Origin: Nemertoderma westbladi
Lineage: Eukaryota; Animalia; Xenacoelomorpha
Reading direction: 5' to 3'
DNA length: 64,000 nucleotides
Assembly: GCA_032718475.1 (NCBI GenBank)
Contig: JAUCBJ010001563.1
Coordinates: 1-64,000 of the forward strand
Shown here in pieces: positions 22,664 through 60,633 of this stretch. Numbering within the stretch: the first letter of the stretch is position 1; every line of letters starts with the position of its first letter. A program made the position numbers and the translations under genes. The notes beneath the pieces were generated by a model that saw only the letters and a program-made list of their open reading frames with translations, made no database searches and was not told the origin of the DNA.

Positions 22664-22856
22664 GTAATTAATATATAGTATTATCAAGCAATTTGTCATC
22701 AAATTTTATACTACTCCACTCCATTCCATAATTGTTTGATATCGGCTATCGACTTTAGCATGGTCACCAGTCTCTACAACGTTATGTGACAGAATCAACG
22801 GATTCAACGCACTTTGGCTAGTAAATGTGCTTACAATGAAATTATGGCTCATTTTC

Positions 22857-25557: not shown

Positions 25558-27776
25558 AAAGTAAATAAATACAATAAAATTATAGCACTACAGTAGAAAA
25601 ACATAAATGCGGGAAATTTAAAAACTTAAGCAACAAACAGTTAAACTGCACCACCACCAAACACAGTAAATATATCAGCCAAATACAGCAGTAAATAGAC
25701 TTACAACTGTACCTACAGTAGACCGATATATTTAAATTGATTGTTTTTATGTTTATATATTATTATACACCTACACCAATATCGTTGCCAGGCAACACTA
25801 TTTACAGAATTCATAAATGTTGTATGGCAGCGCTTGTACCACAGTACTACACAGGTTGCCAGCTTTCTGGCAACCCCGCGCCATCATCCGGCCCCCGAGC
25901 GCTCCTCCACTTGGTGCGGGAGCCCCGCAAAGAGTGGGTGGCCCCTCTAATAATGGCCAACTGAACCCACGTACGGATCCAGCCCATTGTGACGCTATAG
26001 GGCCACCCCCACGATCGGTGCAGCCGGTCTGCCACCACACGGAGAAGATGGTTCGCTTGCGGCGCGAGAACTCCGTCGCAAGAGGCGACGAACGGCGAGA
26101 AGTCTCCCCGTCGGGCCGTCACTGCGTCCGCGTACAGCCTCTTCTTCTGGTCCACGGCCGATTCCAGGACAGACATTGGGGTGCGACCCGCATATGACCC
26201 GGCGTCAAGGTTTACAACCCGAATATCGATCAACGCCTGGGTCTGCGGGTTTAGCGCACCCCGTATCCCCACATCACAACGAAGACCTGCTGCTCCGTCT
26301 ACTCCCTGCTGTTCGCGGACCACCGGCTCGAGGGTGACGTTCTGGGGCCCGAACTCGCGCGCCGCGAGATCACCGACCACATCCCGGAGCTTGTTGTTTC
26401 TTTGGATTACGAGGCCGCCTTTTTTACAATTTAAACCATGGTTTAAATCGAAGGCGGCCCCGCACCCATCGCACCGACTCGGCACCGCCGCCAGGGGACG
26501 GCCGTACCGGATCGCCAGCGCATCCCGGAACTCCATGGGGGAGAGATCAAGTTGGTGTTCGGCTATCGGGAGGGAGGAAATCCACCCACTAGAGCGGAAG
26601 TTGGTGGCGCGCTCGACCGTCCGACGGCGGCCCTGTGGGAACTCGTCCAGCATGGCCTCCAGACTAGCCCTCTCCCTTCCGAGCTGTTGGTCCCGTCCTT
26701 CTTTCCGCGCTCGCTGTAAACAATTACGGTGGTCCATGAGCGAGAACTGCCGATCTCCCAATAGCGACTGCGCGATAGTCCGGGTTCCAGCTCGCGATAT
26801 ATCGAATGAGTGGGCCGCCTCGGACACCGGATTCCGCAGTCCGAGACCTGCAGTGCGAGGTGAGAGGCCGAACAGACAATGCTCGTTTGGGGAGATCGGT
26901 CCGCCAAACACTGCGGGAAGGAAACGCTCAGTCAGCGCATCCTCCAGCACCTGGTACTCATCATCACAGTCTGGGGTTATGCGCTTGAGGTAAGCCCACT
27001 CCCGTTGGAGGGAGCCGGCCATGGCAGCGAACGCAGCTTGGGGTTGGGTCTCGGCCATCTCTGAGAGACGATCAACCGATGCGACCCACGCAGCAACTTT
27101 GGCCTGAACGTAACCCAATCGCTCTGCAGTCCCACCAAGATACCCGCCAAGGAAACGGTGTCCCGTTACTATGTTTATCTCCTGGCCAGCGAAAACTCTA
27201 CGGGCCTCCTCCTCGTACTGTGGAGCTACGACGAGGTAACTCTTGGTGGGTTCCGGATAGTAGCCGAGGGTGGGGCCGTGACGTTTCAGTTCCCTGAACC
27301 ATTCCAGGATCGGGAAGGGTCTGCCAGCTGCCGCTGAGTCGTCGGCAAACCAGTTCTGAATGAGGGGGGGCTTTCTCAGGTGGTGGATGAGGGGGAGTAT
27401 ACCGGTCGAGTACTCCAGCATCGCAAGGGGATCGCCCTGGGTGGTTCCCTCCTCGCTAAATAGAACCACATTGGTCCCTCTAATAATTAGCATACTGTGC
27501 CCCCTGTAGCAGTTAAACAAAAACAGTGAGCACCTGGGCCACAGCTGACGAGCGTTCCACAACGCGGCCGTTCGGTTCATCGAATTGAACGCGTTGGATG
27601 CGTCGACGAGGAGAACTCCCCAGCCGTCTTCCTTGTGGTCCTCAAACAACTCCGCCATCGTGTGGACGGCAGCCTCGACGCCGGCTGGCGTGCCGGCGGA
27701 GAGCTGCTCGGCGCCACAGGTCGCGGTGACGTCATCCCCCGTTGCTTCGGCCAGGGATCCGCCGAGAAGCCATGGG
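25558..27776 (-). mobile_element. 5'-truncated CRE-like non-LTR retrotransposon with a restriction-like endonuclease
   Basis: GC-rich insert within the satellite; the satellite resumes 12 nt back (ATCTACCAATAG at 25546-25557 and 27777-27788), consistent with a TSD; 3' UTR about 290 nt. Confidence 0.85.
25847..27776 (-). CDS. RT, CCHC finger and REL endonuclease (N-terminally truncated; frame open to the junction)
   Basis: QLSAG..AGVEAAVH, VDASNAFN, GTTQGDPLAM, FADD, CDGC..HGLNCKKGG, RNNKLRD, EP..RCD..IDIRV..K. Confidence 0.9.
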
Positions 27777-28793
27777 ATCTACCAATAGTGTTAGCGCTGA
27801 CTATCCATTTATCTACCAATAGTGTTAGTGCTGACTATCTGTTTATCTACCAATAGTATTAGTGCTGACTATCTGTTTATATACCAATAGTATTAGTGCT
27901 GACTATCCATTTATCTACCAATAGTGTTAGTGCTGACTATCCATTTATCTACCAATAGTGTTAGCGCTGACTATCCATTTATCTACCAATAGTTTTAGCG
28001 CTGACTATCCATTTATCTACCAATAGTGTTAGCGCTGACTATCCTTTTATCTACCAATAGTGTTAGTGCTGACTATCTGTTTATCTACCAATAGTATTAG
28101 TGCTGACTATCTGTTTATATACCAATAGTGTTAGTGCTGACTATCCATTTATCTACCAATACTGTTAGCGCTGACAATCTATTTATCTACCAATAGTGTT
28201 AATGCTGACTATCTGTTTATCTACCAATAGTATTAGTGCTGACTATCTGTTTATATACCAATAGTGTTAGCGCTGACTATCCTTTTATCTACCAATAGTG
28301 TTAGTGCTGACTATCCATTTATCTACCAATAGTGTTAGCGCTGACTATCCTTTTATCTACCAATAGTGTTAGCGCTGACTATCTGTTTATCTACCAATAG
28401 TATTAGTTCTGACTATCTGTTTATATACCAATAGTATTAGTGCTGACTATCCGTTTATCTACCAATAGTATTAGTGCTGACTATTCATTTATCTACCAAT
28501 AGTGTTAGTGCTGACTATCCATTTATCTACCAATAGTGTTAGCGCTGACTATCCATTTATCTACCAATAGTGTTAGTGCTGACTATCCATTTATCTACCA
28601 ATAGTGTTAGCGCTGACTATCCATTTATCTACCAATAGTGTTAGTGCTGACTATCCATTTATCTACCAATAGTGTTAGCGCTGACTATCCTTTTATCTAC
28701 CAATAGTGTTAGTGCTGACTATCTGTTTATCTACCAATAGTATTAGTGCTGACTATCTGTTTATATACCAATAGTGTTAGTGCTGACTATCTG
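27777..28793. repeat. 34-bp minisatellite, right block
   Basis: Same unit as the left block. Confidence 0.97.
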
Positions 28794-35841: not shown

Positions 35842-36793
35842 TTGGAGAGATATGTGAGATATTAATTTCAAGAAAAATTACGCGATTCCTAAATTTGTAC
35901 ACTACCCGGTTAAAAAGTACGCATGTGATTAGTCCTACAATTGCGCCAATAAAAGATAAGTTATTTTCGGTAAATCATTCGAGGTAAAGACCCCTAGATC
36001 CCTTCCTATAATAAATGTATAATAACAAACACCTCGAAAAATACAGCTTGCCAACACATTGTTACTATCAGTAATAGCACATCACATCATAAACGGTGTG
36101 ACACGTACGCGTACAATAGTTCATAATAGTCCATCACAGCTACACACACACCTTGACCCGTATTATAGTGTTATAATCTGGTGACAAGGAACCCACCAAA
36201 TTGTTCTTCAAATCTTTATCATATTGCTTTAAATTTGAAAAACAACTAGTTCAACTTACCGTCGATGTCCACATGCTAGAATTTTCTATTTTACCCTTAA
36301 TATTTTTTATGTTTTTATGTTTTTTAAAAGAGTTTTTAAAAGTGTCTTTTGCGAAGTCGCACCCTTCGCATCGCAGCCATTCTTCACAAGATTTTTATCA
36401 TTCGAAAGCTTGCGTTTCAAGGATTCTATTCCAAATATGTATCAATGTCTTCGATTCGTTGAGAAACATCTGATATATGGACGTTAAAATATTAGATAAT
36501 TAATACAAATCTGTGTGAAATATCGAATTCGTTTTTAGTCTGTTCAAGTTTCAAATGTTTCATTAATTATTATTTCGATCATCCACAAAATGAAATTCCC
36601 ATACTATAAAACTCTAAAAACTGTCACTAAATGGTATTAATGATTAAAAGTGAACTTTACTATTAAACATAAATATATTTTTTAATGGAACCAGTAATTA
36701 AGAAAGAGATGACGTGTGTGTATATTAGTGCTGAACACTGAAATAGAAACATGGATAAATCTTGAAAAGAAATTGATTGATAAATTCGAACTT

Positions 36794-39319
36794 ATGGGTA
36801 GAGTTAATATATTTGCCAGACTAAAACCAACTCCAAACATCTGTGAGTATTACCGGAACTCCAATGATGTCATTGAGGTTAATATGCCGGATACTCCTTT
36901 ACCAGGAAGCAGAACAACGTCATCCACTACCCAACACCGATTCGAGTTCAATCAAGTACTTGATATATACTCATCCCAGGAGAAAGTATTCGATGCTACT
37001 ACCAAAGGTATAATAGAATCTTTCATTGAGGGTTACAATGGGACCATCATGGCATATGGACAAACTAACAGCGGCAAAACCTTTTCCATACATGGTATAA
37101 ACGATAAACATTCTCATAAAGGCATTGCACCACGAGCTTTAACTATGATTTATGGAAAACTACCAGAAAAATCAGAAGTAAACGACGATATTTCAATAAA
37201 CATTTCGTATGTAGAAATTTACCAAGAGACATGTTACGATCTGTTGAGTCCTGTTGTTTCTTCATTCAATGGAGCTGCGAGTTATCCAAAGGTTTCTGTA
37301 CTCGAGACTTGTGGAGGTGATTACTCTCTACGCAATGTTAGCGTTCACCCTGCACCAAGGGAGGACATTGCACAGGCTTTACTAAACCGAGCTGTATTAA
37401 GTCGCAGTACATCGGAAACCACAACAAATCCGACATCCTCACGATCCCATGCTATATTTACTATCCACCTGAGTATCAGACATGGAGAAACTTCGCGACA
37501 CTCTAAACTCCACTTGGTAGATCTGGCGGGATCCGAACGTGTTTCAAAGTCACGAGTTGATGGCGTTCGATTGAATGAGGCGAAATTCATAAACCGGTCA
37601 CTCCATCATCTTGAACAAGTTATTATTGCTCTGCAAGTTAGTGAGCGCAACCACTCAGGCCGCTTTGAAACTCATATACCTTATAGGAATTCATTGCTGA
37701 CAATGTTGCTCAGAGACAGCCTGGGTGGTAACTGTCAGACATCAGTGATAGCGACAATGTCCATGGATATAAACAACATTGGAGAAACTCTATCAACCTG
37801 CCGTTTCTCCCAGCGATGTGCCTGTGTCTCAAATAATCCAGTTCGTAATGAAACACTAGATGATGCTGTTGTGATCCGTCAGTTGAAGAAAATAATTCAC
37901 GAATTGGAAAGAAAAATACAAACTTTAACGGCACCATTAACTTCCAAGTCGCATAGCATTGACTATGAAGATCTTGTTAATAAGTTTATCGATGGTGAAG
38001 TTGATAACATTGCACAATATGGTGTTAACAATGTAGAAGCCTTTAATTTATGCTTAAATATTTTGAAAACCAGAATAAACACTAGAGATCAAATAAGCCC
38101 GACAGTAATGACATCAGCCCAAGACACATCTACATCACAAGTTAAAATGTATAACAGTAGAGACATCCAAGGTCAGGTGAATATAAATATAACTGAAACT
38201 GCCGTATTTGATGGTGATTTAATTACAAATGGAGATAGTGGTTCCTCTAACAATGATCAAAGGAAAGAACATCCAAGGAAATTGTGTACTCCTTATGAAC
38301 GAAAGAAAAGCAAAGAATTACAAGAACTAAATATTCAAATCATCGATAGAGAAATAGAACAAAAGAAATCCGTGAGGAAGTTGGCAGAAGAACGGATGAT
38401 AATAAAAATGCAACGATTGGATATTACAAAACAGGAATTGGAAACTCAAATAGAAATGTACAAAGACAGAGTTGAAAATCAGCGAGGGTTTGTGCTGCAG
38501 ATGATACATGGGGGTGATTTATTGGATGATATTGAACAGGAAAAGATGGCAGAACACTTGTTAACGAAGAAGTTAAAAAAGTACCAACATCAATTGGCGA
38601 CAGTTAATGGGCAAATAGGAGTACTTGATCGAAAATATTTGAAGAAATATGATGAAACAGCAGAAGAATCATATGCACATGAAACGTTGGATTGTAGTAA
38701 TTCCTTACCCAAGTATCTCACAAGTAATATTGTTTCGCCAAAATATAAATCTCGGCTTGTCTATGACTATCTGAAAAATAAAGAGGATGACCAATTGAAA
38801 AATGATCAACAAATTAAAGAGGCAGCTCGGTGGCGTAAGATAGAAGAGTTGGATAACAAAGAAAAATTAACACGACAAAAACTCCAAGCTCTAAAACTAT
38901 CCCTAGGTACTACAGGTGGTTATGGCAAGAAATCTCTCCAAACTAATGATTCTATTACTGGATCAAAACTATCTAAAACTGAGCCAATCTCTGTAGAATC
39001 CATTACTAATTCCACAGCCAGCTTGTGCAACCAACATGTCAATAATGGGTCTATAGGAGAATACAAAAGCGCTAATGAAGCTGCGATAATTGTTGGTGAG
39101 AAGGGTAAACCAACTCTGTTTGGATCTCAGAAAGACACAGACCTCAAAAATTATAACTCAGATGCATACAACAACAGCTCTCATATTGCCATCATTGATA
39201 AGAAAGACTCTCGTTCCGAAACCAGAATAGCAGATAAACGATTGGAATATTTATTTACAAATATTATACAAAGTCAAAAAAATGGGTTGGTTGGAGAACA
39301 CTGTTTTAGCGAGGCATAG
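36794..39319 (+). CDS. Kinesin-9 family (KIF6/KIF9-like) motor protein, single exon
   Basis: P-loop GQTNSGKT, switch I SSRSH, switch II DLAGSER, EAKFINRSLHHLEQVIIAL, HIPYRNSLLTMLLRDSLGGNC, TCRFSQR; coiled-coil tail; first ATG at 36794. Confidence 0.9.
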   Translation: MGRVNIFARLKPTPNICEYYRNSNDVIEVNMPDTPLPGSRTTSSTTQHRFEFNQVLDIYSSQEKVFDATTKGIIESFIEGYNGTIMAYGQTNSGKTFSIHGINDKHSHKGIAPRALTMIYGKLPEKSEVNDDISINISYVEIYQETCYDLLSPVVSSFNGAASYPKVSVLETCGGDYSLRNVSVHPAPREDIAQALLNRAVLSRSTSETTTNPTSSRSHAIFTIHLSIRHGETSRHSKLHLVDLAGSERVSKSRVDGVRLNEAKFINRSLHHLEQVIIALQVSERNHSGRFETHIPYRNSLLTMLLRDSLGGNCQTSVIATMSMDINNIGETLSTCRFSQRCACVSNNPVRNETLDDAVVIRQLKKIIHELERKIQTLTAPLTSKSHSIDYEDLVNKFIDGEVDNIAQYGVNNVEAFNLCLNILKTRINTRDQISPTVMTSAQDTSTSQVKMYNSRDIQGQVNINITETAVFDGDLITNGDSGSSNNDQRKEHPRKLCTPYERKKSKELQELNIQIIDREIEQKKSVRKLAEERMIIKMQRLDITKQELETQIEMYKDRVENQRGFVLQMIHGGDLLDDIEQEKMAEHLLTKKLKKYQHQLATVNGQIGVLDRKYLKKYDETAEESYAHETLDCSNSLPKYLTSNIVSPKYKSRLVYDYLKNKEDDQLKNDQQIKEAARWRKIEELDNKEKLTRQKLQALKLSLGTTGGYGKKSLQTNDSITGSKLSKTEPISVESITNSTASLCNQHVNNGSIGEYKSANEAAIIVGEKGKPTLFGSQKDTDLKNYNSDAYNNSSHIAIIDKKDSRSETRIADKRLEYLFTNIIQSQKNGLVGEHCFSEA

Positions 39320-43657: not shown

Positions 43658-44815
43658 TGTAAAAGCTTTTGCGGAATTAGCCGGTTATTTTCCCCGTAAA
43701 GTACTCTGTAGTTGGTTTAACAGGCATAAAAGGCCGTATCCTTACTGTACTGGTGTTTTAGTGGACATAAAAAGCCATTTCTTCTGTATGTGTACTTTAG
43801 TGGACATAATTAGCAAATCTATGTCGCAATACGCGAAATCCTCTTGAAACAGTGTAGTTACTATGACGACAGCTAACAGCTGATCTGTACACGTGTAGCT
43901 TTTTTCCTTGTTCTCTGGTGTTTCTTTGTTCGGTCAACCAATCGGAGCGATTCTCCTGCTTTTTGTACAGAAACCTCCGGGAAATCGCGCAATGCATTAT
44001 GGGTCAATGTTTACATTTTGTCCTGAGCCCAGAAGACCGGCTTTGGAATCTCTGTGTTTTCAGTGTTTAGCCCAACATTAGTAGGCTTAATTATAGAACG
44101 TATATCTGTTATCTTACATATCATAACAATTTATACCTTAACATTTTGCTGCTATTTACTGTCGGTTATTCATTATATCAGTTGATGGAATATTATTATA
44201 TTTGGAATATCTATAAATAATTACAAAACCCTCAATCTTCTTGATATACTGAAGGTAAGAGAGACTGGTTACATATAACGATTGCGACTTACATTAAAGT
44301 GGCTTTGAAGTGAATCTAATGCTATTTCATAGGCACTACATGTATTGGTTGTTGTTCTCTTTATATGTGACTAAAATTAGTGAAGGTCGGCAGATCGGTG
44401 TGCAGCATTGTGCAGTATTGTGTATGATTGTGACTGATAACAAAGCATCTCCTAAAGAATGCGCTATATACGTGAATCCATAGCCATCCCGTTGTGTCTA
44501 GTTTAAGTCATAACTCTGTTTACATATTTAGAGCGCCACGTCCTAAAGGAACTGTTAATATTTCCCGAAAGTGAATAATATTTGTCAGAGATTATATATT
44601 ACGATCAGTCGAATAATACAGTAGGCCTACACCGCAATAAGGTTAGGCTTCCGAATCCAGTCTCCCAGGTATATCCAGCGGGTGAATGGTCGCGCATAGA
44701 CTGGCTTCGGCTAATGTAGTGTATCAAATACTCGTCATAGGCTAAAGACGATTTATTATCTAGAAGACATCCCAATTTGGCAGGTTAAACTGCTAAAGGT
44801 CTGAAAGCGCGAACA
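43658..44815 (+). repeat. 5' LTR
   Basis: Direct repeat of 59476-60633 with about a dozen substitutions counted by eye. Confidence 0.97.
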
Positions 44816-45094
44816 ATAACAGATATTGCTTCTGTATTGCGGTAGGCAATAAAGCTGAAGTACCGGTTAACCGGTACCTAGTAGGCCTGACTACCTAACT
44901 ACCCGGACCGGTACTTACAGCAGTACAGGTACAGCAGTATTATTCGATTTGATAATTATATACCGGTAGGCCTTAATATTGAATCAGGGAGGGCCCGCCC
45001 TGGTTTTTTATTGAGATTTTACTTATTTCTGTCAGTTTTATTTATTTGTAGGCCAATATTGAGCAGAAGGCGTGTAAGCCTGCTCAGATTGTAC

Positions 45095-45670
45095 AGATAA
45101 TTTGTAGGCTGGACTGTTGTCTGACTGTTGTTAAGTCTGAAGGGACTGTAGTGTGTGTAGAGCGTATGTCCGAAAAAGTACTAGTTAGGAAAGTAGGGGC
45201 TTCCAGTGCTGTGAGGTAAGCCCCCTCGAAAGAATAAGTCGTACTACTCAGTTAGAACGCATACTAAGTAACCATTTCGGAGTCTGCATATACTGTAGTG
45301 TATTTAGGCTTGATAGTAGTCTGCCAGCGTTTGGTCTGTACTTTGTTTGTGTAGTCTGTACGGGTAGCGTAATATTTCTTATTTAGATAATTTGTAGGCT
45401 GGATTTTGCCTGGCTGTTGTTAGGTCTGAAGAGATTTCGGTGTGTGTAGAGTGTATGTCCGATAAAGTGCCAGTTGGGAACGTAGGGGCTTCCAGTGATG
45501 TGAGGTAAACCCCCTCGAAAGAATAAGTCGTACTACTCGGTTAGAACGCATACTAACTAACCATTTCGGAGTCTGCATATACCGTAGTTTGTTTAGGCTT
45601 GATAGTAGTCTGTCAGCATTTGGTCTGCATTTTGTTTGAGTAGTCTGTACGCGTAGCGTAATATTTATTA
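45095..45670. repeat. Two tandem ~290-bp repeats in the element's 5' leader
   Basis: AGATAATTTGTAGGCTGGA at 45095 and 45385. Confidence 0.85.
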
Positions 45671-46619
45671 TTCAGAGTTTATGCGATTATTCGCAACATT
45701 CATATCCCCAAGTTTATTCCTACAGTAATTGTGCTTGTTATATATACCGTTATAGTTAAACTAACCCCGGTACTACATCAGGGCTGCTTGGCGTAGGTAA
45801 AGACTGGTGATTTTGTGCCCCGGTCACTCCAGCAGATGCCGTGGTTCTTTTAGCTGTTCAAGTATTTTTAACTTCTGATTATTTGTTGTATAAGTACTTG
45901 TACCTAATTTAGGGTTTAGTGTACAGTGCTTTCCGAAGGTGATTAGTGTGTGGGCAGTATATTTGTGTTGTAAAGTGGTTAATAGGCACGTTGGTTCTGG
46001 TAGACCGCGGTAATTAACTTCTAGGTAGGAACACTCCGTGATACATAATGTAGTACTTATAGCGATACGGCTATAAGTCGTCAGACGGTGGCATTTTCCT
46101 ATCTGGACAACGCAGTATATTTACTACTACTTATTATTTTCAAATACCGTAGTACCCTGTCCGTTGTAATAACCAGATATTCTAACCCTTTGTTAGGCTG
46201 GTTTGTACACTTCTTGTAAAATTACCCTAAAAATTCTTCCTTGTAATTTTTGTGTTTATTTAGAGATTGTAATCTCACCCCGAATTGTACGTAATTTGTA
46301 GTATTAAGTAACTTAGGTAAATTAGAATTATTTGTTTTAGTGTCCAACAAGTAGCACTTCACTGAGAGCGTACAGCTTCTGTGCGGTGACTCTTTCCCAG
46401 AAATAATAACATTTATTTCAAATATTGACAAAAACCCATTAAACGGGTATACATATATTATAAATCAACTCAAACCGATTTATAAAATAGTAGGCCTGTC
46501 ATACATCAATTAGGTCTTAATGTCAGTTTGACTACTGCTTAAATAACGGTAATCAAGTAAAGTAAAGTAAACAAGTAACCCCTAAAATTCAGAAATTCAA
46601 TTATTCTAAAATAATTGAC

Positions 46620-46995
46620 ATACCGGTATTTGCGATAGGCTTATTATATTTTTTTCTATAAATTTAGGCTGAAATTATACCGGTATTCTGTAATTAATTC
46701 TAGTCCATAATTATACTTATATATACTATAAGTGTAAGCTGTATACCGGTATTCACGATAGGCCTACTATATATTTCTATATATTTGTGCTGAAATTATA
46801 TACCGGTATTCTGTAATTAATTCTAGTCCATAATTATACTTATATATACTATAAGTATAAGCTGTATACCAGTATTCACGATAGGCCTATTATATATTTA
46901 TATATATTTGTGCTAAAATTACATACCGGTATTCTGTGACAAACCTAGTCTGTAATAATACTTATATATATACTATAAGTGTATACCGGTATTCT
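46620..46995. repeat. ~120-bp tandem repeats built on TACCGGTATT subunits, in the leader
   Basis: Directly visible. Confidence 0.8.
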
Positions 46996-47128
46996 AATAT
47001 ATTGTATATATATCATGTTACATAGAGTAACGATATCGGTAATTAATTACTAGGCTAACGGTGATACTGAATTACTAGACTTGCTTTAACTGTAATATAG
47101 CAGTAGGCATTCAACTGTATAAACAAAC

Positions 47129-50100
47129 ATGTCTGACACAAAGCCAAACCTGTCAGACAGTCTCCTAGATACAACCATCTGTGACCCAGGCAGGAGTGTG
47201 GAACGTGTGAGACCGAAGTTCAATTCACCTCCTACCGTAAGAAAGATCATCCCTCCAGTAGTAGTATCAGACCCTAGGCTAGTCCAACACCGTAGGTCTA
47301 TCATAGGCACTCGAGCTCAGGTCAAGCGGGACCAAGAAGCAGCAGAACGGCAGCAACACTCGAGCCGAGAACTTATTTCTCAGCGGCCTGACAGCTCCAG
47401 TAGTACGGATACTGTAGAGCTGACACCCGAGCGCGGAGCAAAGATGGCAGATGCGGTTTATTCAGATCCCCTTCTCATCCTTCCTGCAGCCGTACTCACT
47501 AGGGTATTGATTGCGGTGGAGGAACACCAGATTGATTGGGCGAGAAGTAAGCGATCGACCAAGGATAGTTATGCGGGATACACAAGGGAAGAACTGAAGT
47601 CTATTGTCGAGTCGCAATGGAACTTCCCCGGACCCGGACTCCCGTTTGACTTATCGGAAGCTGCCTGGGAAGACATACACAGGATGGGAGTGACAAAAGA
47701 AACCAGCGATCCAGCTGTGTGGAAGAGGTCAGCAGCAGGATACGTACAGGGATTCTTCAGCTCTATGGAGCGATTAGAGGAACAACTGTTTCGACAACCC
47801 CAAGGACCTCAAGAGCAGGGAGAGCTGCTTTATCAAGTTAGAGAAAGAATTCTAAGAATCAGACTAATCTTATCGGCGTTTGAGGAGGCTTCGAAAAGAA
47901 GACAAGACACGTCGTTGCAAGTTGCCGTAAAGACTTGGTTTCAGCGGGTGAGTTTCAAAGTTCAAGGAACTGCCCAGTGGAAATCTCAGCTGGTTGAGCG
48001 CTCAACCCATGGAGAATCAACAGACGCTACCTTCTCCCAAGTGGAAAGTGAAGTGACAGCAGAAAAACCGCATAAGAGGGATGCTATTGACATCTATCTG
48101 TCAGACTATCAACGATTTGTAGGTGACGAAGAGTTGAGGAGACGGCTGTCTGGACTTCGCCCTAATAGTGAAGGAGCCAAGCTTGTGTTGGACGCAATCG
48201 ATGCGGATATGAGAGCTGCGAACCAAGCTAAATTTGATGAACGCCTCCGCATCGCTAGAGTCCAAGAAGAACAAGTAAAGAAAAAACGTATAGAAGACAG
48301 AAAGATAGCAGCAGCGGCAGCAGCAGAGGCAGAAGCAGAAAGAAAAGCGGCAGAAGCGGAAAGAAAGGCGGCAGAGGCAATGGCAGCGGCAGAAGCGGAA
48401 AGAAAGGCGGCAGAGGCAATGGCAGCGGCAGAATCAGAAAGAAAAGCGGCAGAAGCGGAAAGAAAGCGAGCAGTGGCAGAAGCAGAACGAAGAGCATCTG
48501 AAGAGACCACCCAACTGGAGTTGGAAAATATTCAAGAGAATCAAGACTGCATAAATAAACAGTTAACAGCTAGTAATATGCAGATGATGAATCGATCTAC
48601 TCCCAAAAGACAGGGATATACATCATCTGAGGAAGGCGATACCACCGATACTGAAGGTGGAGGAAATAGATCTCGTCTCAGCAGACGTAGAAGAATGTCC
48701 CACCGTCAGAAATTGCCTGATTTGCCCCCAGCTGTTAGAAGGCAACTAACTAACACAGGCTTAGGTAGTACAGAACCCACAGACCAAATAATTAAAATAG
48801 AAAGACTCCCTACTATATTAGAAGAGCCTGAAATAATTAGGCCTGTTCTCGAAGCCACCCCCTCGGTGATAGAGACACCTGTACTCCCTGAACCTATCTC
48901 TAAATTCCCTCTGCACAGCACTAAGCTACCTGTGCCCAGCAGAACAGCCCATGAGACAGTTCATGTCCTGGACTCCGAGCGAAATATTAATGATTTGTCG
49001 CCCGTTGTCCCTCGTCCGCCCGCTACAACGTTGGCGGCTCCCGCTTCGGCGGTCGAGTGGGTGGATGAGAGACGGCGGGGGATGGATCTCCTGCTCGGGC
49101 AGATGCAGGAGACGGTTAAGCAGCAAAGGGCACAGTAAGGGAAAGTAGGTTAGAGTTGCAAGAAGTGCAGCAAAGTATCGCGTTAGAACGCGATAAATTA
49201 GTAAATACACAAAGGGGTATACCACCACCCCCGGTAACAATGTGTCAACCTGTTAGGTCTGAAGTATCTCATGCGCAAGGTGTGTAGCCTACACGCATCT
49301 ATACTGCTAGTGAAGTAGAAACTCCTCTAGTGAACCCTATTAAGGGTAATTATAAACCTGCTGACAATGATATTCCCTATAGACCTGATCATAATCCGAG
49401 AAATTTATATACCGATAACTCGATATTAAATAACACGATGGCCCAAGAAAGTTTTATGCGTCAAATGGCTAGAACCGAAGCCCGTCAAGCGGTAAAGGTG
49501 GGAGAGATAGTCAAGTTCAATGGAGATGAGATGAAATGGTTACCTTTTAATGAATATTACAAAGATAACATACAGAACTCTGTGCTATCAAATGGAGAGA
49601 AACTTAGATTCCTCATCGAGTGCTTGGAAGGATCTCCCAAGTTAATGGCGTTAAAGTTTATTGGACATCCAGATGGATTAAGACAAGTTTGGGATACACT
49701 AAACATCAGGTATGGTAATAGGAATAACATAGCTAAATATTTGTATGCAAAATTAGTAGCACCCCGAAAGTTCATTAGCAGCGGGATTATAGAGTTTTCC
49801 GATGAGATTCAAGAGATCTGTAGACAATTAGATTGGCTAGGTAAGTCTCATGAATATCAGAGTTCTATGGTTATTGGAGCTGTGGCTTCTACTTTACCGA
49901 AGGGTGGAGTAGGTACACGCTGGGATAAGAAAGTGTTATATATGATGGAACAACAACGCCGAGACCCTACCATGGCTGATCTTATGTCATTCTTAGATGG
50001 AGAAGTGAAATTACAGCTCCTAAAACAGTCCAGAGAGAAGACACCGGAAAACAAGGTAAGTGATAAACCAGTTTCTAGGAGAAAAGTAACACCAGTGTGT

Positions 50101-52083
50101 TATACCGACGACGGCGAAAGCCAGACTTCTCAAGGAGAGGATAGCGGGAAAGATACTGAAAGATCTTATTATGTCAATAAAACGCCTAAAGAACAGGTAA
50201 GTAAATTCAAGTCTCGAACCAATGACAGGAGAGAACAGGTAAGAAAAACTCCTCCTACGTCTCCTAAGAGAATTCAGGTAAGAAAGCCCGAAGAAAGAAC
50301 GAGTGTGCACAATGTTATTCAAAATAAGGTAAGTAACATCAAACCGAAATGTGTGCTATGTGACGGGACCCACCGTTTGAATATGTGTGATGAATTCCTA
50401 AAGAAATCATTAACGGAGAGACGGGAAGTCATGTGGGATAAGCGGTTGTGTTATAATTGCCTCAGACAAGGACACCAATGGCGAACCTGTTACTCCGACA
50501 CAAGGTGTGCAAAGTGCGGTGCGAAACATCATATCTTGTTGCACACTGAATTCGAACGAAACAGCCCGAGTCAGGTAAGTGATTCCGAACTACATGTCCA
50601 ATTCAGTGATGTGAACGACACGGACCAAAGTTCTGAGATGGAAGGATTCTATACGGACGAATTCTCCGATGAAAACGAATCCTGTTACATGATAAATACC
50701 GCAGTGTATCGAGCACTTACGTATGAAAAAGACACAGACAGCGACCTCACCCTAACTACTTCTGATCGACAACCATCTTGGAAAGCGCCAACTTCCAATG
50801 TAGGAATCCGAGAATTTCCTGTAGTACAGTTAAGGGTCCACGGACCTAAAAGGAGTTATATAGTGAACGCCCTTCTTGACTCCGGTAGTACAGGAACATT
50901 CATCGACAAAGAACTAGCCGAAGACATCTTTGCTGGACAACCCAAGTTCCGAACTAAGCTAAATATGTCAGGAATTATGCAGGTTTGGAAATCTACAGTA
51001 ATAGCGGATTATTATGTAGGTGCGTTGTCCACCCCCCAGGATGAACTAGGAGAACATAGTATAAGGTCAGTAAAAATGGTGGCGATAAAGAACTTCGCTA
51101 CCAGCCAAGTGGAACCTTATAACTGGGATGAGGACGATTTCACCCAGCAGCTTGAAATACCTAGATTCAACACCGATTACCCTGGAGTGCAAATACTCAT
51201 CGGTCAAAACGCGCATGAAGCGCTCGAGACATTGGAGAAACAGCCTGCTCAACCGCAACCACTACAAGCCTATGCGGGAAGAACTAGAGTGGGTTGGTAC
51301 TTTACTGGCCCTTCCCGTAGAACTCTCATGGAAAGATTACCAAAAGAACAGGTATATCATTTAAGTGAATGGGAAGTGGAGAGCAGTGAAGTTGACGACC
51401 CAACTGAGGGAACACCATACTCCTCAGATAATGACGATATTAACTCTAATGTAGATCAATGGAGATATTGCCCCGAGACGATTAATCTAACCAACATCGC
51501 TTCCAGAGGAGCAACTCCTCAAGAACTGACAGATACTCCAGACTGGTTAGGTGGACCCGACTTCCTAAGTAAAGTAGATGAATGGCCTCCCCATCTTACC
51601 ACGGCTGAGATTAGACAAGCCAAGGGAGCGGACAAAGTCAAACCTAAAACCCGGACGAGTAAATCAAGGTTATTTAAACCCGTGATAGATCTGTCTGTAT
51701 TACACATTGCGTGTATTGCACATCTAAACTCCCCCACCGCGAACCGATCTGTTGTGGAGATCAGAGAGAGAGACTGGAGATCTGGAACACCAGACATCTC
51801 GCCGGGACTCTCACCTCTCCTGCCGGGAGCGATGGACCACTATAGATCCTGGAATCGGCTTTGTAAGGCCGTCGTGTATTTGAAGCGATGTTTCTATCAT
51901 CACTATTCCAGGACGAAGAGGAAACCTGGAATTGTCTTCGAGACACAGCAGCTCAATCGCCCAGTTGGTCGTTTATGTTTACTGGAACGAGACCGAGAAC
52001 TGTCCGGAAACTATGGAAGGCAAGATACTCTTCCCACGACCACCTCCCTAATCCAACAAACATCTAGGGACTCCCCAACTTAA
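47129..52083 (+). pseudogene. Bel/Pao Gag-protease polyprotein, about 1650 codons; one frameshift near 49135 and one TAG at 49285-49287; RT and integrase absent
   Basis: DUF1759-like KFNGD..KW..F...LSNGEKLRFL; knuckles CVLC..H..C, CYNC..GH...C, CAKC..KHHILLH; protease LLDSGS; Pao RNase H tail QWRYCP..N..ASRG..WLGGPDFL; terminal RPVGRLCLLE. Confidence 0.88.
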
Positions 52084-53720
52084 CAACGGCTGGAGCGGGT
52101 GTGTGACTATATTTTGTATTTGTTTTTATTCTTTTATATTTATGTATGTATTATTATGTAATTTTATTATAATCATTTTCTTTAATTTTATTTAGTAGAA
52201 TGTTATTTTAGCGATTATTTAGTAGATTAGTGCAATATATATTAGTGTTTATTACTTAATTACTTATATATTATATATTTAGTGCGACGGCGAGAAATAA
52301 TTATTTTTCTCTTTCCTTACTGTCCGTATTACATTACAAATACGTAACTACAGTAAGATGAAATATCCGTACTTATTAAAGTACAATAAAGCTCCTACTA
52401 TATTCAAGTATTATTGGTAAAGTAGAGTATTAGGAATGCAAAATTCAGATCCTCGTGTCTCGGCTAAACCAAGCTCTGGGTAGACCTTGGAAACGACTTG
52501 CCTCTTCTCACTGACATTGCTTCGTGCGATATTGCTCTCATACCGTATATTAAATAATACATATAGTAGCGTGATGTCCCTTTAACAGTAGCGTACAACG
52601 CAAAATAAATCTGTTAAACCCTTTGACCATCTGTAATTCTAGTCGATTAAGATATCGCGGCACCCACCGATATACTTGAAAGACAAAATTCTAGAATCAG
52701 TGGTTAACGTCCCCAGACAAGTTCTGGAATAAACTGGTGCCCATCCTAAATATTAATTATTAATATTTACAAAATCTGTTAAATTTTAGATCCTTTAAAA
52801 TTCTAGTCTATTAAGATATCGTAGCACTTACCGATATTCTTAAAAAGACCAATTTCCTAGAATCAAGGATTCCAGTCCCCAGACATGTTCTGGAATAAAA
52901 TTGTGTCTATTTAACATTAAATAATAAAATTTACGGGAATAAATTTAAATTCATATTTTTAATGAATTTAATAAATTGTCATTTTTATACAATTTATAAC
53001 ATTCCCAAAATTCCTTTAATTAATAGATCATGGGAGCGGAGATTCACTCTATTAAGTGTATTAGTGTGCGAGAATCTCCAATATATAGTCAATAGCCGAT
53101 AAAATTCATAAAATCATGTATAGAGAGGATATTGACCATTAAAGAATTACTATTAAATAGCATCCCAGATCTGTATACATGAGAATTACCCTAATTCTAC
53201 CGCTAGCTTTCCATAATGTCACCATGGCAACAACCACGCTAGAATTAGAAGTGAGTTAAAAGAACAATAGAAAGCTTGCCCCATTGAATAGCATAGGGAA
53301 TAAATAGCGCACTGCTAGTATCCAAGGATACATAATAATAAAGTGACATTCTGGAAGGCACTGACTAACGGACAAATGGCCCGAATGTGTACAGTTTGTG
53401 ACAGTTGTGTTGAATTTGTGCATTTATAGGTGAATGTTACTGCTAAAAGTGTGTTTACAGTAGTGAGTCGCAATTGTGAAAGTAGCCCTAACTCTCCAGA
53501 AAGAACCTGAAGTACATCTAAGCCTTTGGGACGGACAGTGGAGTGACTTGTGCCGGTTATCGTTGTCGTTGTGTAGCTACATCGTTGGCGAAAGCACAGC
53601 GACGACGGTACATCGGCGCTGAGGATCTTGCACTGTCCGGGGGCAAAGAGGGGTAGGCAGCGACGCCCGCTAGCCTAAAATATAAACTCATTATAATATT
53701 GATAAACTCATATAGCAGAT

Positions 53721-56700
53721 ATGACTGAGTTGATAGAAGATGATCTTGGTATCAGGGAGCAATATACTCTACCTTTACAAGCGTTTGTCGATAGCTTGAT
53801 ACGCGGCGATGCTGGTCCAACTACTACGGAGGATGATGGTCGTTATATCGAACCGCCAATGTCCCCGGAGCAACTTACGCGTGAATTGGATTATAGAAAG
53901 TTCACCGCTCGCTATACGCATCGTAATGGTACGTATATGGACTTCTTAACTAATGGCCATCCTATCGATTTACACGATACGGACGATGTAGACACCAAAA
54001 GGGAAATGGTTTTATTTAAATATCATACCCAGCGGAGTCGGAACGATAAACCGAGAATAGAACACGAGAACTCTATTCGAAACAGACTCGAAAGGGAAGA
54101 CGTTGAAGAGCCGGATAAACGCAGCGACTTCAACGATTATCTGGAATTCCTGAGAGAGACATATCTCAATATTGCCAGCCAACAAAATCTCGAAACTCGA
54201 TATCCTCAAGGTATACATCATGATCCTATGATAGAACTCAAACGACTCTATTTCACTATGATGTATCTTACCGCCGATCGACCGCTACCTGTCGTCCCAG
54301 ATAGCTTCGAACAGATGGAGGAATATTGTAAAACTGGTGAACGATCACCCGCGTTTCCCCTGCAGGACGTGCGTCTTTGGTATTACTGCGACGAATGCCC
54401 TAGACCCAATCAGCAAACGGAAAGACATAAACATCCGCGGAGACGTTGCGCTAAACACAGTTTTACACGATATACTTACGGGAGTTTCGAGCGAAACCTG
54501 TTCGACGTATCACCTACGGTCGCTCGGCTCAAACGATCCTTGAATAAACCAATGATCAGAGTTCCGGAATACTCGGTCAGACCTCCTCATTCCTCAGTTA
54601 GACCTCAGACTCTTGAGCCTAATAGTATCACGGATCCTCCCGAACTGTACTCACTGTTCAAAGATCTAGTGTTACCCGAACAGTTGATCGGTGGCACTCC
54701 GGTAGTGGGCTCGCTAGATATTCGCCAACCCTACCTAGCCGGATTAGGACGCGGTCATCTAATATCGCCGTTTAACCCGTACAACCGTCCCGGCTTCACC
54801 CCGATACAACCCGTTACGGAAGTCGAAGAGAGCGTCGTACGAAACGCGTTAGACGCTATTCGGCAGAAAATCGGAAAGGGAACTTACGATTGTTTGGAGA
54901 AATGTAAATTGCAGCAACAAGTCCAAGCGGTGAAGGAATTAGCTTTACCCCAGTTCGATAGAGAAATACAAAATCTCGAGGAGGACATCGAACGTGGACG
55001 AACCTACTCTTTACAAGAGTTCCTAGATGAGCGTTTACAACAACAAGCGGAGGAAAATCAGCTCGAGGAGAGACATATAGAACTAGATGAGAGAGAAGAA
55101 GCAGCTTTAGCCCAGCCAGAAGCTCAAATCCTTATAACAGATCTCTATTCTAAAACCATTATCCATCCTTCGATGGTTCCTCATTTCGGAGACAAACTCT
55201 TCCCCACGGCACAGCCTCAACCGGTTGATATCAACCTAAGATCTCGAGATCTTATCGCTGATGCTCCCATGTTGCAACGTCCGCCCATCGAAGCCGCTCA
55301 TGTCGATGGTATACTCGTTGAACCTCCGGACAATAGAGCGGATCTTGTCCATCGCATGGTACACGATGTTAACATACTCGCTAGACCTTTACCGGACTCG
55401 TTTTATGGGATCAAAGATCACCCTTGTTGCGTCAATCTAACACAATATTACATGGTAAAACCGGAAGATCCTACACATAGTCTAAGGTTTCTACCACTAA
55501 TAAATCCTCTCGATCTTGTCGAACTCGAACAACTGCAGAAACATCTGGATCAGTTAGTTAAAGTTAACTCATTTCGAAAACCATATAATGTTTCCAGAAT
55601 AGAGAAAGAAACACTACCTCCGTATAATCTTGATGGATTCATCAAAACTCGATTAGTACACTGGAATCTTGACGTGTTATTCGAGGAGGAAAGAATACAA
55701 CGATATGGAGATGTGGAAACATATACTACACAATACTTAAAGTATAGAGATCTACCTAATGCTAGCGAATGCGCTACCTTGTGGCATCCAGTGGGAATGA
55801 CTCTCGAAAACGCCACTAAAGAGTGGAATGAGACTCTTAACGTTATCGAGATGTATGGAGTTGTCACTTACGATAACGAAGGTAGCGTTCCGGTTGGAGA
55901 ACTGGGAACTACGCGAATGATACACATATGAGGACTCGCTGGTTCTACCCACGTATTTACTCGAGCGTGTTCCGATGTGATTGATTATTCTTTTGAGACT
56001 CTTACTGAGACACAAAAGAAACTCCGACATGGACAATTCGAACTCGCGCAGCGTTACGTCACCGACACCGAGCGCAAACCAGCCATGGGTATCGATGGAT
56101 CGATGTTACCCCAGCCCGTGCTCGGAATGTTGTTTAACGAAAGAATCCTTAAAATCGGCTCAGCTGTTTATGGAGATCTACAAAACGACTTTCGGAACAT
56201 GGAGAACATTCCATACCCTTTCGTTGATACTCAGCTGATTGCTCCCTGGGCAGAAGGCCGAGGTTTCTTCCGCACTATGTATTAGGGCGGTGCGTTTTTT
56301 ACTTTTTTTCGATTTCATTGTTCTACCGGTGCACAAAAGTTGCCAAATGGTAAAAAAATAAGGCAAAAAAAATTTCTTTAAATTTCGTCTATATCTTCAC
56401 GGATCCCAAGAGGGTTGAAATTTTGTGCCATCGCGATGCACCATAATGAAATTTATAACAATATAACACATTGATGAAAGATCAATGACTCAAAAAAGGA
56501 CTTCCTGCATGCATCAAATGTCATCAAATGGGTCCAAACTTAGTTAGATACCAAAATTTTAATTTTTGGATCAAGGGAACTAGTGCCACAGGCACGTGGC
56601 CAGAACCTACCATTTGGCGCAAGTGATGATTATTCTCAATTTTCGCGATGACCAACTTTGAGTTCTCCTACTGCATTCATATTATGCTCATTAGAACCGC

Positions 56701-59397
56701 AATGGCCGATTTAGTGGGGGTAGACACCTTCAAAATAAACATAGAGGGAATAGTTCTTGAGATATCGCAGAAAATGTGAAGTCCGGCACAAGTCTACATT
56801 ACCACCTTGATGTGATATGGACAAATACACTAAAAATGATATTTTGAATTATCTCAAGGAATCACGAATAGACACATCACAGAAATGATCGATATAGTGG
56901 GTGAAGACACCTTCAAAATAAGAATAGAGTCATTAGTTCTTGAGTTATTTTACAAAATGTCAAGACTATGTCCACCAATTAATACTTGATATTGAGTTGA
57001 CCCATTCCACACATTTTGTACAAAAACTATAGTGAATTAATCACTACTCTTTAATTTTGAAGTTGTCTGTATACAGTAAATCAATTTGTTGCAGTGATGT
57101 GTATATTTTTGATGCCTTAAGATAATTAGAAGTAACATTTTTGTGTATTTGTCTATAAATCATCAAGGCGGTAATGTTGACTTGTGCCGTACTTTACATT
57201 TTCTGCAATATCTCAAGATCTATTCGCTCTATGCTTGTTTTGATGGTATCTACCCCCACTAAATCGGTCATTGCGGTTCTAATGAGCATAATATTAATGC
57301 CGTAGGATAAATAAAAGTTGTCCATCATCAAAATTGAGAATAATCATTACTTGCGCCAAAGAGTAGGTTCTGGTCATTTGCCTGTGGCACTACTTCCCTT
57401 GATCCAAAAATTAAAATTTTGATATCTAACTAAGTTAGGACCCATTTGATGATATTTGATGCATGCAGGAAGTTCTTTTTTGAGTCATTGATCTTTCATC
57501 AATGTGTTATATTGTTATAAATTTCATTATGGTGCATCGCGATGGCACAAAATTTCTACCCTCTTGGGATCCGTGAAGATATAGACGAAATTGAAAGAAA
57601 TTTTTTTTGCCTTATTTTTGTACCATTTGGCAACTTTTGTGCACCGGTAGAACAATGAAATCGAAAAAAAGTAAAAAACGCACCGCCCTACTATGTATGC
57701 CAATACACCCAGCGGCATTACTAAAGTACAACGAACCTCCATCGGACATCTTGCCTTTCAAGAATACGGATGGAATTTCAAGGTTGGAAATCCTATCAAT
57801 TACCAACAAGTATATGGAGATCATTATTCTCGTTTATACTTTGATGGACCATTGACCGCACCTGGCGCCGTGTATAGCTTTATGAGTGTTCCACTTCGTC
57901 CCTCCTTAGCTATATACACGATCTTTGAAAACGCAGCACTTGCTGGATGGCTAGCCGATGTGTGCAGTCGTACCATACGCACCCACCCCTTAATACTTGG
58001 AACCAAACTCGCCAAGTTAGATTAACACAATAAATTCATCCGCTTCGAATGTTTCAGGCGCTTTCTGACTCCGTTCCGTAACGTTGATAGTCAGTTCAAG
58101 GACCGCGCTCTGACCAAACTCAGCCTAAGAGACTCAGCTGCGGAGAAGCTAAACAGCGCGGGATTTGCCCTTTTCCAGGACGTTTGTATACAGAACTTAC
58201 ATTCATCTGTTATACAAAGACCCCGAATACCCACGGGTTATTCTGTCGTGGAAGTTCAGACAGTGGGTCCGCTTGCGGAGACAGCCGCACCTACCTCAGC
58301 TATGCAATTGGAAGACGAACCAATATGCTTAGAATCTGAGGCGATTCAGCCTACAGCGCCCCGGAGCAGCGATAACGACTACGTCTTAGAGTGGTATCAA
58401 GGTCCACAATGTCTCACCGCATACGATTATCGACACGCCAACTATGTTTCTCGAAAACGTTGTCGATTATGCGCATCGAGAGACCATTTCACCCCTATGG
58501 ACTCAGACGTACCCTGCTCCTATTTCCACGAACAACCGATGATGGAGATCTATTGTGCGTATTGCAGACTTAATAACTCGCACATTTTTGCAGTCTGCCC
58601 CCAATTTATGACTCAATGCCACCACTGTCAACTTAAAGGACATGCCAGTTATAATTGCCCCTTTAACCACGATTTAGAAAGCGTAGATGAGATGATTATT
58701 GCTTATCCTGCGCTACATCCGAGCTTGGGAAGCGAACGCGGATTTACATTGTGAGTCCCGCCATCGCTATTACCCTGGACGCTCTTACGAGGGAGTTTAC
58801 GCGTTCCATCCTTATTTATTCGCGTCTGTTGAACAAAAAACACGCACACCGAGTTACGAACTAATGAAGCGTGTTGGTGAGTGTATTTCCACCAAATTTG
58901 TTCGAAAATATCTCAGGAACGTCAATCCTAACGATATTACTTCATACCATTTGATCAATTTCATCCGTCAAGACCCTGAGTATGGCGATTTATTTATCAA
59001 CTCGCACCCTTAGTTACAGGAAGTATCTCGACGGCCCTACGAATATCGAGCCCGAGAACGTGAGCTGGAAAGAACCATTAAACCGAGGAAGTTTCTCACC
59101 ACTCACGGTCCACCTACCGCCATTGTCCAGACGACCCGTCAAGGACCCGTAGGAGCTGCTGTCCTAAGACGCGCCCTAAAGGCCGTTAGACCTCGCTCCA
59201 CTGAAGTTGATATCGATCAACCAGGTACTTCGACCGGCGGATACACCGATCGTAATCCTAAACCTTCTGATGCAATTGTATTGCACCCTTCACCCAGGAG
59301 TTACAGCCCTCCTAGTAAAGTGGCTCGCCCCAAAGAGAAAAGGACTCTTGCTAGCCTCAAAAAACTGCGTAAACGCCGTCCGCGTAAGAAAGACTAA
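53721..59397 (+). pseudogene. Extra gene (ORF3) of about 1420 codons after reconstruction: unknown N-terminus, DEDDy 3'-5' exonuclease-like domain, CCHC knuckles, basic tail
   Basis: The frame continues through TGA 55929, across the MITE (TSD CTATGTAT) and through TAA 58023; frameshift near 58740; TAG 59011; ends KKLRKRRPRKKD-stop near 59397. Confidence 0.8.
56283..57690. mobile_element. 1408-bp foldback MITE, hAT-like
   Basis: TIR TAGGGCGGTGCG; 8-bp TSD CTATGTAT (56275-56282 and 57691-57698); arms complementary over most of the length. Confidence 0.92.
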
Positions 59398-59465: not shown

Positions 59466-59475
59466 CTGGGAGCGG
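59466..59475 (+). other. Polypurine tract before the 3' LTR
   Basis: CTGGGAGCGG directly followed by TGT. Confidence 0.7.
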
Positions 59476-60633
59476 TGTAAAAGCTTTTGCGGAATTAGCC
59501 GGTTATTTTCCCCGTAAAGTACTCTGTAGTTGGTTTAACAGGCATAAAAGGCCGTATCCTTACTGTACTGGTGTTTCAGTGGACATAAAAAGCCATTTCT
59601 TCTGTATGTGTACTTTAGTGGACATAATTAGCAATTCTATGTCGCAATACGCGAAATCCTCTTGAAACAGTATAGTTACTATGACGACAGCTAACAGCTG
59701 ATCTGTACACGTGTAGCTTTTTTCCTTGTTCTCTGGTGTTTCTTTGTTCGGTCAACCAATCAGAGCGATTCTCCTGCTTTTTGTACAGAAACCTCCGGGA
59801 AATCGCGCAATGCATTATGGGTCAATGTTAACATTTTGTCCTGAGCCCAGAAGACCGGCTTTGGAATCTCTGTGTTTTCAGTCTTTAGCCCAACATTAGT
59901 AGGCTTAATTATAGAACGTATATCTGTTATCTTACATATCATAACAATTTATACATTAACATTTTGCTGCTATTTACTGTCGGTTATTCATTATATCAGT
60001 TGATGGAATATTATTATATTTGGAATATCTATAAATAATTACAAAACCCTCAATCTTCTTGATATACTGAAGGTAAGAGAGACCGGTTACATATAACGAT
60101 TGCGACTTACATTAAAGTGGTTTTGAAGTGAATCTAATGCTATTTCATAGGCACTACATGTATTGGTTGTTGTTCTCTTTATATGTGACTAAAATTAGTG
60201 AAGGTCGGCAGATCGGTGTGCAGCATTGTGCAGTATTGTGTATGATTGTGACTGATAACAAAGCATCTCCTAAAGAATGCGCTATATACGTGAATCCATA
60301 GCCATCCCGTTGTGTCTAGTTTAAGTCATAACTCTGTTTACATATTTAGAGCGCCACGTCCTAAAGGAACTGTTAATATTTCCCGAAAGTGAATAATATT
60401 TGTCAGAGATTATATATTACGATCAGTCGAATAATACAGTAGGCCTACACCGCAATAAGGTTAGGCTTCCGAATCCAGTCTCCCGGATATATCCAGCGGG
60501 TGAATGGTCGCGCATAGACTGGCTTCGGCTAATGTAGTGTATCAAATACTCGTCATAGGCTAAAGACGATTTATTATCTAGAAGACATCCCAATTTGGCA
60601 GGTTAAACTGCTAAAGGTCTGAAAGCGCGAACA
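59476..60633 (+). repeat. 3' LTR
   Basis: Direct repeat of 43658-44815. Confidence 0.97.

Follow-up and report, generated by a model that had tools for sequence, protein, structure and literature searches.

The window analysed here is a stretch of 64,000 nucleotides from Nemertoderma westbladi (contig JAUCBJ010001563.1, positions 1-64,000, plus strand), to which all coordinates refer. It carries a 17-kb long terminal repeat (LTR) element of BEL/Pao type with a large, broken third open reading frame (ORF), referred to as ORF3. With a confidence slightly above even, ORF3 is read as the broken copy of an accessory gene belonging to an abundant family of BEL/Pao type without reverse transcriptase (RT) and integrase, and its product as likely to be a soluble, RNA-binding, RNase D-like protein with zinc knuckles that would guard or trim the 3' ends of RNA. 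The element has a BEL/Pao-type architecture and contains neither RT nor integrase, an Exo II/DTQ block of ORF3 matches RNase D, and many divergent copies contain ORF3 DNA.

Coding potential of ORF3

ORF3 consists of six stop-free pieces on the plus strand, extending from an ATG at 53721 to a final stop at 59395-59397. The first piece (53721-55928), which starts with the ATG, has 736 codons; it is followed by pieces at 55932-56282, 57699-58022 and 58026-58751 and, in the next frame, by two pieces at 58756-59010 and 59014-59394 that share that frame. Three of the five breaks are stops (TGA at 55929, TAA at 58023 and TAG at 59011); the frame changes once, within the overlap 58696-58754, and foreign DNA is inserted at 56283-57690. 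With an X placed at each of the breaks the length is 1420, and about 73 stops would be expected per 1420 codons of random sequence of the same composition. Codon statistics trained on the gag region of the element place all six pieces highest in the assigned frame among the three plus-strand frames; the margin for the fourth piece is only 0.001, and one reverse frame outscores the assigned frame of the fifth. The last 213 codons (58756-59397, plus strand), with the internal stop at 59011 and a basic tail, probably form the C-terminus of the same protein. The reading of ORF3 as a real gene is supported.

The maximum hydropathy mean over 19 residues in all the pieces is 1.19, and no membrane segment has been identified in any piece by this measure; ORF3 is therefore not env. 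Neither a signal peptide, a transmembrane anchor nor homology to glycoproteins has been detected, as judged by hydropathy and by matches in Pfam and PDB, where no glycoprotein matches below an E-value of 0.65. A TATAAA is located at 53681, 40 nucleotides (nt) 5' of the ATG, and AG dinucleotides precede the ATG immediately; these represent a possible internal promoter or splice acceptor. An earlier note on this DNA, prepared from the letters alone, had reassembled six fragments into about 1420 codons with three stops, one frameshift and one insertion, had denied that ORF3 is env and had placed a TATAAA near 53681, and all of these statements hold good. CpG is not depleted, the ratio of observed to expected being 1.24 in ORF3, 0.95 in the LTR and 0.81 in gag; germline methylation of the element family is thereby suggested to be slight.

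Probable RNase D-like domain and zinc-knuckle-like motifs

The proposal of a DEDDy exonuclease arose from motifs seen by eye and was then tested. The 5' half of the domain (55801-56282, plus strand) comprises a weak Exo I-like D-x-E at 55872-55880, the stop at 55929 and a significant DTQ block at 56112-56246 that includes the Exo II Asp at 56175. The 3' half (57699-58200, plus strand) has an Exo III-like segment at about 57846-57930, the stop at 58023 and possible HRDC-like helices at about 58059-58166. When the piece 55932-56282 was compared with 18,950 NCBIfam models, two RNase D models were the sole matches (E 0.0036 and 0.016), with a score of 16.6 bits as against a family cut-off of 299 bits. 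In a set of 237 targets, a purpose-built profile of 12 bacterial RNase D domains matches the same piece with an E-value of 1.3e-5, as compared with an E-value of 2 for the next unrelated frame.

The alignment of residues 691-960 by hhalign scores 33.9, compared with 13.8 +/- 3.0 and a maximum of 24.0 in 60 shuffles. Its path crosses the insertion and covers Exo II, DTQ and Exo III, in that sequence, along some 200 residues. The Exo II/DTQ block, which has the features of the DEDDy group, scores 33.7 by itself against a shuffle maximum of 14.0. In the Exo III region the Tyr of the Y-x-x-x-D motif aligns and a Ser occupies the column of the Asp, in an alignment that is weak when taken alone. On the Exo I side a PHROG exonuclease family is matched with an E-value of 0.19. 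The HRDC-like stretch scores 13.7 in hhalign, a value reached by 1 of 60 shuffles, and hmmsearch with an HRDC profile gave no match after the nuclease-like domain. The model predicted for the 5' half from its sequence alone has a predicted local distance difference test (pLDDT) score of 29. A profile of the polA exonuclease (scores of at most 9 bits), built from wrongly chosen frames, was discarded together with a pooled profile that included it.

On these comparisons the middle of ORF3 is quite probably homologous to RNase D-like exonucleases. The predicted domain seems to lack the last catalytic Asp, and its odds of catalysis are about even; given this seeming loss, it is about as likely to bind without cutting as to be catalytic.

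Three zinc-knuckle-like CxxC-H-C motifs follow at 58461-58658 (plus strand; residues 1110-1175), one of them a canonical CX2CX4HX4C. Pfam zf-CCHC_3 matches this region with an E-value of 0.007, below the cut-off, and the tail of ORF3 after the knuckles is basic. A match of Pfam EAD2 to the last piece (E 0.003, below the cut-off) has been taken as chance.

N-terminal region

Residues 1-693 (53721-55800, plus strand) constitute an orphan region with an acidic start, Pro-rich linkers and a likely coiled coil at about 54840-55115. The earlier note had recognised nothing in the first 700 or so residues apart from a CxxC..H..C..H motif, here located at residues 223-245 (54387-54455), and searches by words, HMMER, Pfam, NCBIfam and PDB have likewise found nothing else. 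The two large homologue collections were searched with residues 1-854, and in the word-index search none of the 7996 candidates scored. The orphan region has no match in Pfam or NCBIfam, and its sole PDB match is a biased coiled coil (E 1.1); nothing in PDB matches ORF3 below an E-value of 0.39. No relative of the first piece was found in metagenome contigs, nor of the gag-protease in viral contigs, and tblastn matches to phages and plasmids were dismissed as chance.

Family copies and selection

Five of the seven public runs listed contain part of 53700-56270, three of them more than half of its words, and no RNA run is among these listed holders. In four runs (X1 to X4, representing three samples and three studies, of which the best holder may be the source of the window itself) the region 47000-56340 is matched by 88,789, 62,624, 25,822 and 796 contig pieces respectively, a contig depth that is not equal to copy number. 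All 30 bins of this region are covered in all four runs, and most of the pieces have 90-99% identity. The many divergent contig pieces indicate many copies, and ORF3 is therefore not a one-off capture. The element family is abundant and diverse.

Of 1796 variable places in the family, 40 picked by support were considered; 37 of these lie in ORFs and form the basis of the following counts, the three non-coding rows having been dropped and two rows that share one codon being counted apart. Variants at which at least 90% of the X2 depth differs from this copy are termed near-private, and the others are common to part of the family. The part-of-family variants are synonymous at 11 of 16 places as against 28% expected (P 0.0008; Fisher 0.02), and the near-private variants at 6 of 21, equal to the neutral share of 28%. 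Among the 12 insertions and deletions listed of a total of 72, nine are in the spacer ahead of ORF3 and none in ORF3. Between the 5' gag region and a second partial copy at 13251-13718, the ratio of non-synonymous to synonymous divergence (dN/dS) is 0.15, with a dS of 0.52 over 158 codons, which places this part of gag under purifying selection.

Family-level selection is likely to have kept ORF3 in the mobile lineage. The earlier proposal that ORF3 was maintained by selection while the family was mobile is thus probable, from the synonymous excess (11/16) in the part-of-family variants.

The second copy of the 5' gag region is partial and older, spans 13185-13877 with 83% DNA identity and is embedded in other repeats. 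One contig of run X4, as judged by eye, departs from ORF3 at 54088 and resumes like 58310-58340 at a short shared word. This joint has the form of a deletion derivative from which some 4 kb of ORF3, the nuclease-like domain among them, are missing.

State of ORF3 when this copy inserted

The insertion at 56283-57690 (1408 nt, no strand assigned) interrupts the exonuclease-like domain. It is nearly palindromic, with inverted arms of 556 nt at 92% identity and ends TAGGG...CCCTA, and is flanked by an 8-bp target duplication (56275-56282 and 57691-57698). The insertion is a large non-autonomous DNA transposon, called hAT-like because of its target duplication, ends and inverted arms; an 8-bp target duplication with terminal inverted repeats is a hallmark of the hAT type. 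A Mutator-like 9-bp duplication also fits but leaves asymmetric ends, whereas the 8-bp reading gives symmetric ones. The insertion had previously been described as a miniature inverted-repeat transposable element (MITE); its presence stands and its size and type are refined. One X4 contig matches as far as 56281 and continues with 94 letters unlike the insertion, which is therefore absent from some copies.

By the LTR clock, taken as half of the LTR divergence, ORF3 should have gained 0.63-0.85 stops, and three are observed. The probability of at least three is 0.03-0.055, rising to 0.11-0.20 when the clock is set to its upper bound; for ORF3 and the gag region together, four stops are found as against 1.5-1.9 expected (P 0.06-0.12). 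CpG decay does not obviously explain the excess, because CpG is not depleted. In a non-autonomous element mobilised in trans, lesions can be inherited. The damage lies at the high end of the range for decay after insertion, and the chance that ORF3 of this copy was intact at insertion is about even.

The earlier note had held that the damage fits neutral decay and that ORF3 was intact at insertion. The former stands, at the high end of such decay, and the latter is unproven given the three stops. More widely, its view of a real gene, distinct from env and probably under selection, is retained; the RNase D-like domain had escaped it, as had the loss of pol.

The BEL/Pao-type element

The 5' LTR (43658-44815) and the 3' LTR (59476-60633), both on the plus strand, are of 1158 nt with TG...CA ends and show 11 mismatches over 1158 sites (0.95%), in agreement with the earlier estimate of about 1%. 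A 5-bp target duplication, with one mismatch within it, flanks the element. The primer-binding position (44816-44826, plus strand) does not begin with TGG and has 11 nt exactly complementary to the LTR at 44102-44112; the chance of such a complement in the LTR is about 0.0013, before allowing for the four offsets tried. This complementarity is a candidate for tRNA-independent self-priming in a BEL/Pao-type element. A purine-rich tract (59468-59475, plus strand) lies directly 5' of the 3' LTR.

The 5' leader (44827-47128; 2.3 kb) has tandem duplications, with two 290-nt units at 45095-45676 and two to three 123-nt units at 46620-46994. It is followed by the 5' part of gag (47129-49138, plus strand), which has 669 codons with a coiled coil and no family match, and which a frame break and a stop separate from the rest of gag. 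Taken to 49288, this region is unusually long, with about 720 codons ahead of DUF1759 and coiled-coil repeats of AAEAERK type. Where it joins the remaining part of gag, other copies differ from this one.

The gag-protease (49288-51390, plus strand) matches DUF1759 (Pfam E 5e-11) and also has a triple Cys-His box and a DSG aspartic protease (Asp_protease_2, E 0.02), features that the accessible text of PMC554778 gives for BEL/Pao elements. Nine BEL/Pao-type homologues share 20-40% identity with it, eight of which are annotated with DUF1759. Between the protease and a stop at 52083 about 230 codons of an in-frame pol remnant are left (51391-52083, plus strand), with no RT, no recognisable integrase core and no match in Pfam or NCBIfam. 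By eye, the remnant seems to resemble the end of a Pao RNase H. The RT/RNase H parts of three relatives gave no match in the element by tblastn (best E 0.44), and the gag-protease parts of the same relatives match it with E-values of 1e-7 to 6e-17; no integrase family of Pfam or NCBIfam matches the element. The LTR ends, short target duplication, gag and protease of BEL/Pao are therefore present, and the RT (YVDD), RNase H and integrase of its pol are not. The element is, on its sequence, a non-autonomous derivative of BEL/Pao and not a full member, being non-autonomous because RT and integrase are absent from it. Contigs cover the pol remnant in all four runs, and a loss of RT throughout the family is possible, with 24 of 3082 loose ends considered.

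A non-coding AT-rich spacer (52084-53720, plus strand), which includes the TATAAA and the AG before the ATG, separates the remnant from ORF3. It contains a 165-nt duplication at 52607-52934.

Proposed role and alternative explanations

ORF3 would most likely be expressed from a subgenomic RNA by means of the TATA or the possible splice acceptor beside its ATG. The protein would use its knuckles and nuclease-like domain to bind the RNA of the element, whose 3' ends it would protect or trim. An autonomous BEL/Pao partner would lend RT and integrase and mobilise the family in trans, in particles formed from the family's own Gag; protease and ORF3 protein would likewise come from the family. A role in shielding packaged RNA from small-RNA silencing, or in interfering with it, is possible. 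The question raised is why an element unable to copy itself would keep 4 kb of accessory coding under selection, and the abundant and diverse family offers the statistics for testing selection on ORF3.

Several observations weigh against this reading. RNase D was chosen for the directed tests after the motifs had been seen by eye, and the significance is confined to one block of 45-57 residues (Exo II/DTQ). The Exo I-like D-x-E is present and aligned, yet 20 of 60 shuffles score as high, and 56 of 60 reach the score of the Exo III-like segment alone. ORF3 is matched neither by Pfam PF01612 nor by either of two profiles representing stand-alone bacterial 3'-5' exonucleases. HMMER found no homologue of residues 1-854 among 1.84 billion representatives, and single-sequence folds of ORF3 segments have pLDDT values of 29 and 38. 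In ORF3 alone, 4 of 6 part-of-family and 2 of 11 near-private variants are synonymous (P 0.056; Fisher 0.11), again among the 40 of 1796 places. The depth drops several-fold over 54800-56047 and contigs skip or delete parts of ORF3, so that derivatives with deletions are common and many copies may lack its middle.

ORF3 could instead be decaying cargo, once useful to an autonomous ancestor and now passive, with some of its lesions older than this insertion. The excess of stops over the 0.63-0.85 expected, the broken gag region of this copy, the deletion variants with reduced depth within ORF3 and the non-significant selection signal of ORF3 alone are in favour of this explanation. It is nevertheless unlikely in view of the clustering of the listed family indels in the spacer (9 of 12) with none of the 12 in ORF3, the 736 open codons of the first piece and the gag-region dN/dS of 0.15 at a dS of 0.52.

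A bolder version of the accessory-gene reading is rather doubtful. It envisages a non-autonomous BEL/Pao family that has shed RT and integrase and lives in mutualism, giving in return for its mobilisation a protein of 1420 residues made up of an orphan zinc and coiled-coil scaffold, a catalytically altered DEDDy nuclease and CCHC knuckles. This protein would act as a suppressor or mimic of PIWI-interacting RNA (piRNA) pathway factors such as EXD1/mut-7, which would explain the very high abundance.

Two other explanations are improbable to a similar degree. In the first, the element primes itself with its own RNA and the ORF3 exonuclease trims this primer or the 3' end of the RNA back to the edge of the duplex. 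The exact 11-nt complement directly after the 5' LTR is suggestive here, subject to the correction mentioned above, and structured 3' ends are trimmed by RNase D-type enzymes according to the accessible text of PMC5408684. The last catalytic Asp, on the other hand, is seemingly absent. In Tf1 the trimming of the primer is reportedly done by the RNase H of RT, which also counts against such a role.

In the second, one short block resembles RNase D by chance, and the product of ORF3 is an orphan with a structural or regulatory function, such as that of a second protein of nucleocapsid type. The flanking motifs, not significant alone, and the lack of a Pfam match and of a homologue of residues 1-854 would agree with this. 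Chance, however, accounts poorly for two RNase D models being the sole NCBIfam matches and for motifs that keep their expected order along some 200 residues, across the insertion.

A capture of a host gene confined to this single copy, which the earlier note had named as a possible refutation, is very improbable, since an exonuclease with knuckles is conceivable as a host gene but divergent copies cover ORF3 DNA in all four runs, the codon statistics of ORF3 match those of the element and no conserved animal homologue of residues 1-854 was found.

Other features in the window

An intron-free kinesin ORF of 868 codons, of the KIF6/KIF9-like group, is situated at 36713-39319. Its identity to lancelet and mollusc proteins is at most 34-44%, and the host lineage is therefore poorly represented in the databases. 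An open frame of 791 codons at 17400-19775 has weak matches to CACTA/EnSpm transposases (DUF4218, E 7e-5; Transposase_21, E 0.005). The region 21683-28000 contains a DUF4806 ORF (21683-22678) and long arrays of a 34-nt repeat. A GC-rich frame of 643 codons without a family match lies on the minus strand at 25847-27778.

Comparison with known systems

A non-autonomous LTR family that retains gag and is cross-mobilised is likewise known in wheat, where the accessible text of PMC11302176 describes RLG_Quinta with RLG_Cereba and proposes that the non-autonomous partner supplies Gag. RLG_Quinta is a plant gypsy element for which that text mentions no large accessory ORF, and the autonomous partner of the family described here is presumed.

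With bacterial RNase D (TIGR01388) ORF3 shares the match of the Exo II and DTQ block, the order of the motifs and possibly the HRDC-like helices next to them. It differs in that roughly 45 additional residues separate Exo I from Exo II and that the Exo I and Exo III motifs are weak, the comparison having been made with bacterial members. Rrp6/EXOSC10, EXD1, WRN and mut-7 are also RNase D-like relatives.

The closest parallel in retrotransposons is found in bdelloid rotifers, where the LTR elements Juno1/2 and Vesta2/5 bear a DEDDy (RNase D-like) ORF3 (Rodriguez, Kenefick, Arkhipova 2017, PMC5408684; also cited in PMC5718144 and PMC6431247). For these ORFs the accessible text of PMC5408684 proposes a role in 3'-end processing or silencing, their function being untested there. 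In both systems ORF3 is distinct from env, lies downstream of pol and has an RNase D-like domain and no transmembrane segment. As far as that text describes them, the rotifer elements are autonomous, with full pol, an intact catalytic DEED and an ORF3 without a coiled coil. The present element, in contrast, has a BEL/Pao gag, no RT or integrase and a multi-domain ORF of 1420 codons, in which an orphan N-terminus of 700 residues is combined with three knuckles and an Exo III that is apparently altered.

A third gene is present in the BEL/Pao elements Tas, Cer7, Cer13 and Atlas, which belong to the same superfamily by gag and protease and also have extra coding after pol (PMC554778, PMC9094657). 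In the accessible text of both papers these third genes are viral fusion glycoproteins, unlike ORF3 here, and the word exonuclease does not occur. No BEL/Pao exonuclease ORF was found in the literature searched, most subscription papers, Repbase entries and supplements being outside the search. A nuclease domain may have been reported for a nematode Cer element by Malik et al. in 2000 or in related work, which would lower the novelty. An RNA-end or anti-silencing factor encoded by an element in an animal would, if true, be a rare case of transposon counter-defence. The present reading would extend nuclease-type third genes from the gypsy-like elements of rotifers to BEL/Pao, where the searchable papers describe fusion glycoproteins alone.

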